Shown: positions 22,331-59,556 of the stretch, piece after piece
Layout: each line of letters begins with the position of its first letter
How positions within the stretch are numbered: the stretch's first letter is position 1
From: a virus
Direction: 5' to 3' (one strand)
Virus record (IMG/VR): IMGVR_UViG_3300035138_000032
Coordinates: 13,389-77,388 of that record
DNA: 64,000 bases
Translations under genes and position numbers: made by a program
Notes under the pieces: model-generated
What the model was told of the DNA's origin: nothing
Seen by the model: the letters and a program-made list of their open reading frames with translations, nothing else
Database searches by the model: none

Positions 22331-22522
22331 ATGACTGAAGAAAATAAGGATTTTCAACCAGGTCCTTGGTGGGCTACAGTATCTGGTGCAGGCACACCAA
22401 ATGCCTCAGTACCTTCTTGGGCCGATGATTATACAAGGCATAGAATTGGCAGGGAAACCACTTTTGCTGATATGGATTCTGTAATAGGTAGAAAAGAAAG
22501 TATTCAGGATGTTAATCCGTAA
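22331..22522 (+). CDS. hypothetical protein
   Basis: AAGGAG RBS. Confidence 0.6.
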   Translation: MTEENKDFQPGPWWATVSGAGTPNASVPSWADDYTRHRIGRETTFADMDSVIGRKESIQDVNP

Positions 22523-22533
22523 AGGGAATATAA

Positions 22534-24354
22534 ATGGATATTAATAAAGTTACAAAAGAGTTACAAGAGAAATACCCCGACGTGGGCATAAAATCTATAT
22601 CCGTGGATGAGGCCTCCGGTAAGTCTACTTTTTATTTGGATCCTAAACCAAAAACCCTTGCATTTCTAGAAAGAGGTGGTATTGTTCCAAAGGCCTTTAA
22701 AGATAAGGCCGCTGTAATTAACAGGGACCTATTGGACAGAAACTTTCTTGATCTTGCTAAAAAAGATCCCTTATCACAGACCCCAAAAGAACAATTTAAA
22801 AACGCTATTAATTACTACCACACAGTTCCAGAGATAGGGAGTTCGACTAATATATTAGCAGGGCTTTCGTCTAAGGGGTTCGAGCATGATATAGACGATG
22901 AAAAAATAAAAAGTTTTTTCGATGTGTGGGCATTTGATGTTAGATTCCATGAGGTACTTGATTGGATTTTTTTAGACTTCTTTAAATACGGGCATGTGAC
23001 AACTTATAAAGTATTAGCCAAATACGAGCCTCGTGTATCTCATTTATCACCGATACCAGGCCAAAAACTCAAGAAAAGTACTGGCCAAATAGAATCAGCA
23101 GCAAAGAAAAACATATGGTCAAAAGGCCACCTGCCCGTAGGATACACTGTACTAAATCCGGAATTAGTAAATATCTCAGGAAACTTGTTGTTTGATAAGG
23201 TAAGTGTCAAACTAACGCCGCCTACTGAATTAACTGAATTACTAAAAAAACCGCCAGCTGAGTTAACTGAGGATGAGAAGGCATTAATAAAATCTCTACC
23301 TTCTGACTTAAGATCCGCCGCTGAACAAGGTAAGGAATTTCAATTAGATCCACGTCTTGTAGGTTTTGTAACTTATAGAAAAATGCCTTATGAGCGATAC
23401 GCTAAACCACGCTCATTTAAATTATTTGACAGTGTTGAATATAAAAAGGCTTTAAGGGATGCTGATCTAAGCACACTAGATGGTATAACTAATTATATAT
23501 TAAAAATTACGATAGGTAGTGACGAATATCCAGTCGTTACACAGACTGAGTTAGAGGCTGTGTCCCAGTTATTTAATACATCTGGTAAGTCTTTTAATGT
23601 GGTTTGGAATCATACTCTAAGTGTGGAAAAAATAGTTTCCCCTGAGATAGGCGAGGTTTTGGGTAAAGAAAAATATGCTCAGGTAAATGATGATATTTCT
23701 GCAGGTATAGGAGTACCTAGAGCTCTAATAGATGGTATGGGCGATAGTATGAATCCATCGCAAGCTCAACTGGCCTTAAAGGGTATACAAGAAGAAATAG
23801 ACTATGCTCGCCGTCAGGTTACTAGGTGGATATATGGTGAATATAGACAGATAGCCGAGGCTATGGGTTTTGATAGATTCCCTAAAATTAGATGGGATGA
23901 TAGTGTACTTAAAGACACAATAATGTATATGAATATTATGTCTCAGCTGGTAGATAGGAGGATGATGAGTTACCGCACCGCGCTTGAGGAGATTGGTTTT
24001 GATTATCCTAATGAATTAGCCAATATGGAAGAAGAGTTCGATCTTGTAGATTCAGGAATATTTGGTATAATAGGATCTCCTTGGCAACAATCCAAGGTAC
24101 AAGCAGAACAGAAAGGTCCTACTGGATCACCGTCTAATGGAAGGCCTACAGGTAAGCCAGCCAAAACTAAACAACCACAAAGTCCAGATAAAAAGAATAG
24201 TACGAAAGTGAAAAAGACTACTAAACCACAAACCACCCCGTCCCAAAAAACTGCTTCATTAACTGATGTGGTAAAAGATATGACAGATGAAGTCTTTACA
24301 GAATTTATCTTGGAATTAGCTAAATTAAGAAATGAAAACGATGAGGATGAGTAA
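22534..24354 (+). CDS. portal protein
   Basis: Position after TerL; 606 aa; helical core (R.AD..TL..I...ILKITIG) and Lys/Pro-rich tail containing GRP. Confidence 0.8.
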   Translation: MDINKVTKELQEKYPDVGIKSISVDEASGKSTFYLDPKPKTLAFLERGGIVPKAFKDKAAVINRDLLDRNFLDLAKKDPLSQTPKEQFKNAINYYHTVPEIGSSTNILAGLSSKGFEHDIDDEKIKSFFDVWAFDVRFHEVLDWIFLDFFKYGHVTTYKVLAKYEPRVSHLSPIPGQKLKKSTGQIESAAKKNIWSKGHLPVGYTVLNPELVNISGNLLFDKVSVKLTPPTELTELLKKPPAELTEDEKALIKSLPSDLRSAAEQGKEFQLDPRLVGFVTYRKMPYERYAKPRSFKLFDSVEYKKALRDADLSTLDGITNYILKITIGSDEYPVVTQTELEAVSQLFNTSGKSFNVVWNHTLSVEKIVSPEIGEVLGKEKYAQVNDDISAGIGVPRALIDGMGDSMNPSQAQLALKGIQEEIDYARRQVTRWIYGEYRQIAEAMGFDRFPKIRWDDSVLKDTIMYMNIMSQLVDRRMMSYRTALEEIGFDYPNELANMEEEFDLVDSGIFGIIGSPWQQSKVQAEQKGPTGSPSNGRPTGKPAKTKQPQSPDKKNSTKVKKTTKPQTTPSQKTASLTDVVKDMTDEVFTEFILELAKLRNENDEDE

Positions 24355-24371
24355 AGTTAGGGAGAATCCAA

Positions 24372-57790: not shown

Positions 57791-57791
57791 C

Positions 57792-57810
57792 TAACCTCTT
57801 TTTTAATAGA
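57792..57810 (+). promoter_or_regulatory. putative late promoter TAACC-N10-TAGA upstream of the major tail gene
   Basis: TAACC TCTTTTTTAA TAGA; a second CAACC-N10-TAGA lies at 57909-57927. Confidence 0.65.
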
Positions 57811-57957
57811 AGTATAAAATTTACACACCTTTAGTGTGTGGAGAAGGCTTTATTATTATTTGATCGCCTCAATCTAATGATAATAATTTGGATTATTTTA
57901 TTAAATACCAACCTGAAATTATTTAGATTCTTAATATTATAGGAGGATTGAGACATT

Positions 57958-59556
57958 ATGGCAAGAAATAGAATAATTTATGCCTCACAATCGGTATGGT
58001 GTAATGGTGAGGTGCTTTATCGAGTCCAGTCTCTTGGAAGTACTACGACTTTTACTTCTGAAGATATCTCCGAGCTTGGTCACTTGGACATAGTCGACGT
58101 GGTTGATGACGTGCCTGCTGTTGCCATAACGTTGAATACCAATGACTTTGGTGATGTTCGTACTATGGCTGTTTTGGCTCAGGTAGCTGTAGGAGAGAAG
58201 AGAGACATGCTTTTGGCTCCAACATCGAGTGGTGCTAATTTAGCTGTTGTCGATTCAGCCGGAGCAAATACAGGTGATTATTATCATGGTGTAGGTTTGG
58301 CTGATTTTGCTATCACATGTGGTAATTTACCTGGTGTTTCTCTGTGGGCCCCTGTCCAAGATGAATGTTCTCTTGGAACTCTTGCGGATAACATTGACCA
58401 GACTATGTGGATGGATGAAGCCTTTATTAATAGTTTGGAACTTAGTTATACTACCGGAGCTAATGCTACCGAGAATTATGGCGCTGAAACTGACCAGAAG
58501 ATGTGGTTACTCAATGATGGAAGATTTGTTAATTACGAATCCTTCACACTATCTGGAACACAGACCACGGTGACTTTAGAAGGTGTGGCCACTGATGGTG
58601 TTACCGTTGTTACTATGTCTGACGGTGGGCTTGGATTCCTCAGAAAGTCCCCGTCCGGAGCCCCTGCTATCTCTATTTACGATGCAAGTGCTTCATCTAT
58701 GACTAATTACACTATAGCGGCCGGAGCTGCTACAGCTACTACGGCTGGATGGGTAGCAGGTACTGGTGTTATTACGCTACCTACTGGTTTTACAGCTGCT
58801 GTTGGAGATAGAGTAGAGGTAGTTTACGCTGCCAATGGTTATGCGTCTTCTGTTAGCCAGAAATATTTTACCATTTTGGATTCTGCGTCCCGGCCGGACA
58901 TGGTCGGCGCTTTGCGACAAGGTCAGATTGAAGTTTATCTGGTCGACCCGGATAATCCACCGGCTACTTGGGCAGATGCTATTGCTTGGAGATTTACTGG
59001 TGTTACAATTACCACAGACCTTACTCGTGAGCCACTTAACCAGTTAGGTAATTTGGGCCCATATGATAGATCTCTTACTGTTCCAATTCCGGTCACGGTT
59101 ACTATGGATACCACAGCTGGTGACTTAGAGCATTGGGCTCGCTTTGCTGGTAAGGATGCTGAATTCGCTGCTGGAACGTTGGATGACATTGATCTTGCTG
59201 ATCTGTTCGGTAAAGAAAATATGGTTTTGGTTGTTAAGATTTATGCTCAGACCGATGAAGAGGCTGGCGGAACTGGCGCTGATAGAGTGTTGGCCACTGG
59301 ATCTTCTCTCATTGGCCAGAATTACTGGCAGGATAGTGCTATTGGAACTTACGCTGCTGCCGGAGAACAGGAATGGCCCTTGAAGACAGTTATTGTGGAA
59401 CATTTGAAGATAACCGATGAGGCTTACACCTTGGATATGGGTGCTAACGCTACTCAGACTTTTGGTTTCCGTTCTATTAATGACCTGTATGTTGTAAAGG
59501 GCGACGTTGCTGTTGCTGATATTACTAGTGGAAATAGAATTCGAAGGAATGCGTAA
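57958..59556 (+). CDS. major tail (tube) protein
   Basis: RVQS....T...ELG motif; strong AGGAGG RBS; followed by hairpin, chaperones and tape measure. Confidence 0.75.
   Translation: MARNRIIYASQSVWCNGEVLYRVQSLGSTTTFTSEDISELGHLDIVDVVDDVPAVAITLNTNDFGDVRTMAVLAQVAVGEKRDMLLAPTSSGANLAVVDSAGANTGDYYHGVGLADFAITCGNLPGVSLWAPVQDECSLGTLADNIDQTMWMDEAFINSLELSYTTGANATENYGAETDQKMWLLNDGRFVNYESFTLSGTQTTVTLEGVATDGVTVVTMSDGGLGFLRKSPSGAPAISIYDASASSMTNYTIAAGAATATTAGWVAGTGVITLPTGFTAAVGDRVEVVYAANGYASSVSQKYFTILDSASRPDMVGALRQGQIEVYLVDPDNPPATWADAIAWRFTGVTITTDLTREPLNQLGNLGPYDRSLTVPIPVTVTMDTTAGDLEHWARFAGKDAEFAAGTLDDIDLADLFGKENMVLVVKIYAQTDEEAGGTGADRVLATGSSLIGQNYWQDSAIGTYAAAGEQEWPLKTVIVEHLKITDEAYTLDMGANATQTFGFRSINDLYVVKGDVAVADITSGNRIRRNA

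Follow-up and report, generated by a model that had tools for sequence, protein, structure and literature searches.

The 64,000-nucleotide stretch analysed here, referred to below as the window, comprises bases 13389-77388 of the IMG/VR virus record IMGVR_UViG_3300035138_000032, a sequence of 77,388 bp with an estimated completeness of 28%. The window has a guanine-cytosine (GC) content of about 36% and carries almost all of its genes on the plus strand. Positions 22331-59556 (window coordinates, as throughout) hold a structural module with a portal, a prohead protease, an intron-split capsid gene, fibre proteins matched by DUF2793, tail-fibre PHROGs and a PKD domain, baseplate wedge subunits and several homing endonucleases, and the predicted proteins of this region repeatedly carry the tetrapeptide Thr-x-Ser-Gly (T-x-S-G), which is the subject of this report. 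Neither the DNA nor the portal protein has a match among 50,697 GenBank phage records. The 438-amino-acid protein encoded at 33565-34881 has more than 250 homologs, all of them uncultured and on contigs of up to 276 kb, so that the phage belongs to a large environmental clade of jumbo phages. An earlier note on this DNA had proposed that T-x-S-G is a virion-wide recognition sequon for a modifying enzyme, for example one that builds an O-linked glycan shield.

The region 22331-59556 contains 41 copies of T-x-S-G in 18 open reading frames, where the composition of the individual proteins predicts 6.7; in 2000 per-protein shuffles the mean was 6.73, the standard deviation 2.61 and the maximum 18 (z = 13.1). 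A hand count in the earlier note, of about 39 copies in 15 proteins, is thus upheld, as is its chance estimate of about 6, although the composition behind that estimate (9-10% of each residue over 7,000 amino acids) has to be corrected to 7.7% Thr, 8.2% Ser and 7.4% Gly over 11,799 amino acids. Enrichment over composition-preserving shuffles had been set beforehand as the test, and the permuted controls stayed flat, with 8 copies of S.TG, 7 of G.ST, 7 of TS.G and 14 of T.GS (a dot standing for any residue) against 6.7 expected of each; an artefact of composition is ruled out by these controls together with the per-protein expectation and the shuffles. Among 48,000 gapped tripeptide patterns T.SG ranks first (p = 3e-19), and the runners-up DH.Q (9 vs 0.37 expected), S..DH (13 vs 1.4) and H.QY reflect a genuine repeat in the fibre proteins. 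Thr, Ser and Gly are each enriched 6.1-fold at their fixed positions, and their substitutes at most 2.7-fold, except for Pro at position 1, which reaches 3.7-fold in the window set (9 vs 2.5). The common turn alternatives are unenriched (T.NG 0.5-fold, T.DG 0.9-fold, N.SG 1.1-fold, D.SG 1.5-fold). When relatives are pooled, Lys and Arg do not occur at -1, x or +4 and Glu is nearly absent or strongly depleted there; Val or Ile is preferred at x, Thr or Pro at -1 and Thr, Ser or Val at +4, giving an extended motif [T/P/V/A]-T-[V/I/A/T/L]-S-G-[T/S/V].

The motif is unevenly distributed among the genes of the region, of which those named below lie on the plus strand. The tail and fibre part (33565-59556) holds 38 copies vs 5.95 expected (z 13.5). 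The head part (22534-33541), which encodes the portal, the protease, scaffold-like proteins, the intron-split capsid gene and small head proteins, served as an internal negative control and holds two vs 0.76, with none in the capsid exons, in keeping with the absence reported for the spliced major capsid protein. Open reading frames outside 22331-59556 contain five copies vs 1.52 expected, the number that had been put forward for genes outside the structural set. Upstream of the head genes, between terminase and portal, a small protein of 63 amino acids (22331-22522) carries one copy in the context WWATVSGAGT. After the capsid gene come the 438-amino-acid fibre- or neck-like protein (33565-34881), with four copies at residues 39, 116, 149 and 416; a fibre-associated protein of 182 amino acids (35371-35919; one copy); an 841-amino-acid tail-fibre protein with DUF2793 and DHxQY modules (35952-38477; five copies); a 246-amino-acid tail-fibre-like protein (39003-39743; two); a 118-amino-acid protein (40564-40920; two); and a long fibre protein of 1687 amino acids with internal DHxQY repeats (40932-45995; 12 copies). 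Two open reading frames of 247 and 331 amino acids (45997-47735) have one copy each, and two small virion proteins of 176 and 155 amino acids (49005-50090) have one and two. A 770-amino-acid chain of immunoglobulin (Ig)-, FN3- and PKD-like beta-sandwich domains (50091-52403) has three, at residues 280, 481 and 561. Baseplate-region proteins of 325 (52419-53396) and 312 amino acids (55324-56262) have one apiece, and a conserved virion protein of 532 amino acids (57958-59556) has two. The counts given earlier for the proteins starting at 33565, which that note placed at 33580, and at 35952, 40932 and 50091, and the pairs reported for those at 39003, 40564, 49623 and 57958, all agree with ours.

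The excess originates at the level of the protein. Within the motif, codon usage for Thr, Ser and Gly follows the background, as does the choice between AGY and TCN for Ser, so that selection acts on the protein, and a DNA-level cause is ruled out by this usage. The 12-residue flanks of the 41 sites have a mean pair score of -20.7, compared with -19.8 ± 0.8 for random positions in the same proteins, and no pair scores 25 or more; a single repeated module as the source is thereby ruled out for the window. Background codon usage, both Ser codon families and unrelated flanks bear out the contention that the motif is variably encoded and is no DNA repeat. A repeated fibre module does exist in the proteins at 35952-38477 and 40932-45995, with the form H-G-x-L-x-G-L-x-D-D-D-H-x-Q-Y ... 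G-x-R-x-F-T-x-T-V-[S/G]-G-I-x-P ... L-x-T-K-x-Y-V-D, and this DHxQY...TV[S/G]G module covers only a minority of the sites in relatives. The structural proteins of phage T4 contain 11 copies of T-x-S-G vs 6.4 expected, and its fibre and baseplate proteins five vs 4.1; T4 thus shows no clear excess, from which it follows that the enrichment is not a general property of fibres, and a generic fibre trait is ruled out by this comparison.

Enrichment extends through the clade. Relatives linked by their portal proteins have 45 copies vs 7.6 expected, 37 vs 3.6 and 18 vs 1.2, and 59 loci around orthologs of the 33565 protein together have 851 vs 118, while three control patterns combined give 472 vs 355. 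Two relatives are complete: G014 (268,764 bp, 34% GC), whose portal is 57% identical to that of the window, and G015 (IMGVR_UViG_3300022719_000329; 295,848 bp with terminal repeats, 50% GC), whose portal is 43% identical. T.SG is the top pattern in the structural region of G014 (47 vs 12.3) and the second, behind SGT, in that of G015 (45 vs 10.5). The GC content of G015 stands apart from the 34-38% of other relatives, its capsid protein is still 63% identical and the enrichment of T-x-S-G and SGT is kept, which points to a change of host in which the motif was retained. By ortholog family, the portal, protease, scaffold-like and capsid proteins and the families of 32695, 33059 and 34904 show no enrichment. 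The families of 33565, 46740, 49005, 49623, 50091 and 52419 are enriched, at site columns that differ between relatives: that of 46740 has 0.70 sites per sequence vs 0.18 expected, that of 49005 has 1.64 vs 0.08 at three polymorphic columns and that of 52419 has 1.11 vs 0.15. Because the head families are unenriched and the fibre and baseplate families enriched, the motif marks appendage proteins and the small pre-portal protein, and the claim that it is virion-wide fails at the capsid shell, portal, protease and scaffold-like families. Giant single open frames of 7715 amino acids in the near-complete relative G006 (119994-143141) and 7667 amino acids in G014 (148970-171973) are likewise not enriched (two copies vs 3.3 in G014).

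Sites are gained and lost among relatives. A set of 120 homologs of the 33565 protein carries a mean of 3.24 sites vs 0.38 expected, concentrated at six polymorphic columns where the motif is present in 105, 87, 47, 40, 29 and 28 sequences, and on a tree built without those columns each has changed state 11-18 times. Sequences lacking the motif at these columns usually keep the Gly, with ANNG, ANAG or ANTG in place of TNSG and TDAG in place of TTSG, and one-step intermediates are rare (two ANSG and one TNTG, vs 27 TNSG). At one column 13.4 of 16 independent pairs show a joint change of Thr and Ser-Gly, with no case of the two changing in opposite senses (p = 2e-4), and at four others the coupling runs in the same direction. 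Sites behave like a unit that is gained and lost whole. For the four residues following DHxQY...G.R.FT. in the fibre module, 23 copies have TVSG, 12 have TVGG and one has TVAG, an interchange which indicates that Ser is not needed for that fold; both copies of the conserved module in the window's 841-amino-acid protein read TVGG where relatives read TVSG. Both sites of the 532-amino-acid protein are missing from its orthologs in G006, G014 and G015. The pre-portal protein of relatives has accumulated two to four copies through short insertions (TVSGAGVTVSG; TFSGTTYSG), with up to four in 89 residues.

Confident AlphaFold models were obtained for the proteins of 33565 (predicted local distance difference test score 81, from 120 sequences) and 50091 (score 89, from 66 sequences). 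The former is of mixed alpha/beta structure, with one domain of about 100 amino acids similar to those at the N termini of tail, neck and tailspike proteins of phages; Foldseek returned partial matches only, over 90-100 amino acids, to N-terminal domains of phage tail or neck proteins. The latter is modelled as a chain of Ig/FN3-like sandwiches, in which the three T-x-S-G of the window protein occupy non-equivalent places within their domains. In the models, some sites occupy long loops, hairpin turns of two residues or coil ahead of a helix, and others sit at a helix C-cap or where a short strand begins or ends. When 23 sites of the 50091 family were mapped, 17 fell at the boundary of a secondary structure element (background 0.61) and 13 had their Gly in coil (background 0.54). 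Such heterogeneous settings in two models imply that there is no single structural slot. The assertion that the motif sits in different folds is borne out by the modelled alpha/beta and Ig-like proteins alike, and with unrelated flanks and non-equivalent positions the sites are not the ordinary turns of one repeated fold.

Candidate reading enzymes are found in the more complete relatives. Every relative whose contig reaches about 100 kb past the fibre genes carries a glycan island: G006 (234 kb, 89% complete) at 61.9-71.8 kb (L095), G008 at 105-119.5 kb (L106) and G007 at 104-118 kb (L104). The island of G006 encodes a short-chain dehydrogenase/reductase (SDR) epimerase, a GT32-like DXD enzyme, a sulfotransferase, an enzyme of glycosyltransferase (GT) fold D, a methyltransferase and two GT-B enzymes of 417 (GT4) and 374 amino acids (GT1). 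That of G008 has the same two GT-B enzymes with a UDP-GlcNAc 2-epimerase (E = 3e-88), a GT32-like enzyme, a pyruvyl transferase, an FrhB-like protein and three SDR enzymes. Only the GT4 (417-429 amino acids) and GT1 (372-374 amino acids) core is common to all three islands; the tailoring cargo differs, and the sulfotransferase and methyltransferase belong to the variable part. If attachment were a fixed step and the glycan built on it variable, one would expect such an arrangement of a conserved transferase pair and exchangeable tailoring genes. GT4 is also present in the complete genomes G014 and G015 and has 98 IMG/VR relatives at 45-100% identity, complete genomes among them, and the clusters to which it belongs are at least 95% viral. 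Among proteins of solved structure, its best sequence relative is the putative chlorovirus transferase B736L (PDB 3oy2, E = 3.6e-6); a sequence search of the PDB with the GT-D protein gave no match. GT1 was not found in the 57-87-kb fragments of relatives, as expected from the distance of the island, which is too great for fragments of up to 87 kb to show it, and the island is presumed to be present in the genome studied here.

Elsewhere the record encodes ClpP, an actin-like ATPase, an M24 peptidase, the single-stranded DNA-binding protein SSB, a deoxynucleoside monophosphate kinase, a GH19 lysin and a terminase that very likely bears an intein. ClpP (Pfam E = 2e-67) and the Volactin-family actin-like ATPase (E = 1e-55) lie at 9920-12247 and are kept in G006, G014 and G015 at 47-66% identity. 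The large terminase subunit (19082-21901) has 939 amino acids, compared with 576-579 in several relatives; given this extra length and the occurrence of the Pfam families Intein_splicing and LAGLIDADG_3 among the non-structural open reading frames, it very likely contains an intein with a homing endonuclease. Its two T-x-S-G (TSSG at 587 and TGSG at 849) are conserved in relatives and are probably part of the enzyme itself. Within the structural module, three genes of homing-endonuclease type (HNH and related; 27771-28748, 31165-32670 and 56234-57790) lie beside the intron-split capsid gene, and the two products of 501 and 518 amino acids have paralogs elsewhere in relatives.

The pattern described above is strong, specific, independent of fold, confined to outward-facing appendage proteins and kept across a large clade of jumbo phages. 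As its best explanation we propose that T-x-S-G is a recognition sequon, probably for O-glycosylation of its Ser in appendage proteins by the GT-B enzymes of the clade, a proposal to which the sequence evidence lends a probability somewhat short of even. Selection would repeatedly place the motif in loops and at strand edges of the tail, baseplate and fibre proteins, which face outward, and its most likely reader would be an enzyme encoded by the phage and active in the cytoplasm on virion proteins during or after their folding; the two GT-B glycosyltransferases of GT4 and GT1 type are the best candidates. Ser at position 3 would be the strictly required acceptor, to which the following Gly would give access; Thr at position 1 would act as a beta-branched recognition residue for which Val is partly tolerated; and the variable island would build lineage-specific glycans on a conserved attachment signal. 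We infer that an enzyme reads the motif, that this enzyme is a glycosyltransferase, that Ser is the residue modified and that the island is present in this genome. What the earlier note had argued for a sequon stands with respect to dispersal, origin at the protein level and occurrence in different folds, and is strengthened by site turnover, the coupling of Thr with Ser-Gly and tandem accretion in linkers; its virion-wide glycan shield does not stand. More tentatively, we suggest that the motif is a true O-glycosylation sequon with a conserved, virus-specific GT-B reader and lineage-variable glycans on fibres and baseplate and not on the capsid, which would be the first sequon-directed protein glycosylation described for bacteriophages.

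Several observations weigh against this proposal. Surveys of the open reading frames with Pfam and PHROGs, and searches for the families GT2 and GT1, found no glycosyltransferase in the 77-kb record, itself 28% complete; the sugar-pathway genes asked for at the outset are seen in near-complete relatives, in their glycan islands. Where the distance can be measured (G006-G008), about 100 kb separate the island from the fibre genes; its neighbours are a PD-(D/E)XK nuclease and ThyX, so that a role in modification of DNA or of the host surface is possible. The co-occurrence of GT4 with the motif is confined to one clade, in which no relative without GT4 or GT1 was found among contigs reaching the locus, and within a single clade shared ancestry explains the association. 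Enrichment in G006 is weaker (46 vs 17.3) despite its island. The cultured Tetrasphaera phage TJE1 has a GT4 of 39% identity next to a nucleotidyl transferase, an epimerase and a methyltransferase, and T.SG in its structural proteins (6 vs 2.7) is not significantly enriched, which leaves the link to the enzyme unproven. The coupling of Thr with Ser-Gly could be due in part to recombination of two local alleles, and the exclusion of charge with Val or Ile at x would suit an enzyme cleft and a strand edge in partial burial equally well.

This last point leads to the explanation that we rank second, and hold to be unlikely, in which T-x-S-G is a structural micro-motif: a strand-end or turn element of beta-rich appendage proteins, selected for folding or stability, to which nothing is attached. 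The hydroxyls of Thr and Ser would line one face and the hydrophobic x the other, with Gly as strand breaker, and this agrees with sites at strand-to-loop junctions, hairpin turns and helix caps, with Val or Ile at x, beta-branched flanks and excluded charges, with a Gly that is often already at its position, with the slight overall excess in T4 and with the recognisable repeated fibre module that holds some of the relatives' sites. Against it, the turn alternatives are unenriched; the settings are heterogeneous and close to background; TVGG or ANNG serves at the same structural position; the motif is missing from other virion proteins of this phage that are rich in beta structure, as its excess is from T4 fibres; and tandem copies occur in a low-complexity linker. 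An artefact, whether of composition, a DNA-level repeat or signal, mis-called open reading frames or paralogous repeats, might have been suspected where Thr, Ser and Gly are common and fibre genes have internal repeats; we tested and rejected it as scarcely credible in view of the shuffles, the flat permuted controls, the background codons and unrelated flanks, and an enrichment reproduced in 59 relatives and at two GC contents.

If the motif is indeed read, the reader need not be a glycosyltransferase. T-x-S-G loops might be bound non-covalently by a fibre chaperone or assembly factor, a decoration protein or a ligand of the host surface such as a polysaccharide or phosphate group, and uncharged loops rich in hydroxyls and Gly can form nests that bind anions or sugars. 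Such docking draws on the same signs of a reader as the sequon does, namely specificity, turnover, coupling and restriction to appendages, but it has no candidate binder; at least 15 unrelated proteins with one to 12 copies each at drifting positions would be unusual for a docking site of defined geometry, and the tandem copies in a linker protein of 63-89 amino acids resemble substrate sites more than binding sites. We give it a slim chance, and a slimmer one to a sequon for some other chemistry (phosphorylation, sulfation, acylation or peptide ligation) carried out by a phage or host enzyme. Sequon-like behaviour is silent on the chemistry, and relatives do encode a sulfotransferase, methyltransferases, an ATP-grasp enzyme and a COOH-NH2 ligase; against this, the Pfam families listed for G006 include no protein kinase, the conserved core of the island contains neither the sulfotransferase nor the methyltransferase, and the GT-B pair are the only clade-conserved enzymes apt for Ser/Thr hydroxyls.

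Should T-x-S-G prove to be read by an enzyme, it would provide a sequence rule predicting outward-facing phage proteins and their modification sites from the genome alone. Glycosylation of phage virions is so far known from few actinophages and without a defined sequon, and literature searches for a T-x-S-G motif or a phage sequon found nothing relevant. A sequon combined with a conserved transferase and swappable tailoring would explain variation in surface chemistry across a large group of environmental phages, would bear on host recognition, protease resistance and the evasion of grazers or antibodies, and would give protein engineers a compact tag for the addition of glycans. If nothing is attached, such strong selection on a four-residue element of fibre proteins is still a matter of structural biology that lacks an explanation.

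Among known systems, mycobacteriophages offer the nearest analogy; their tail-tube subunits are modified as well as their capsids, and the transferase genes lie close to the structural genes. The reported targets in Che8, Corndog and Myrna are capsids, with essential capsid glycosyltransferases (PMC12363180), and mycobacteriophage virion glycosylation is also the subject of Freeman et al. (2023, Cell Host Microbe 31:1216), as summarised in PMC12363180 and cited in PMC12582341. The likeness lies in phage-encoded glycosyltransferases that act in the cytoplasm on the phage's own virion proteins, with shielding of the particle surface as the proposed benefit. The analogy drawn in the earlier note breaks down over the targets, which are reported to be capsids there (PMC12363180), with no dispersed short sequon known to have been described, whereas here dispersed loop tetrapeptides are found on fibre and baseplate proteins and none in the capsid. 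Neither the capsid exons nor the capsid orthologs carry T-x-S-G above chance, and the candidate genes here lie about 100 kb from the fibre genes and are seen in relatives only. Chloroviruses, whose major capsid protein carries N-linked glycans at atypical sites, are likewise large DNA viruses with their own glycan machinery, and the closest solved relative of the clade's GT4 is their B736L; they differ in that the candidate acceptor here is Ser/Thr on the appendage proteins of a bacteriophage.

Eukaryotic xylosyltransferase uses a Ser-Gly acceptor, and the bacterial autotransporter heptosyltransferases Aah and TibC modify Ser/Thr in loops of AIDA-I-type beta-helices. The former resembles the present case in the Gly that follows the acceptor Ser, and the latter in that a cytoplasmic enzyme reads strand-loop-strand elements of a beta-rich surface protein. 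Neither is homologous to the candidates here and their flanking rules differ; the families that Pfam surveys of G006 list include no heptosyltransferase of GT9 type, although no search was aimed at GT9. Bacterial sequons include D-(S/T)-(A/I/L/V/M/T) for O-glycosylation in Bacteroidota and N-x-S/T for PglB or HMW1C. The present motif is T-x-S-G, in a cytoplasmic viral setting with an enzyme that is a candidate only; it is nevertheless a short, specific motif over-represented on one protein class irrespective of fold, and its sites turn over with the motif intact (11-18 changes per column, with recombination as a caveat). As in the bacterial systems, a motif of three to four residues combines a hydroxyl acceptor with a constrained neighbour and would offer many unrelated proteins to one transferase.

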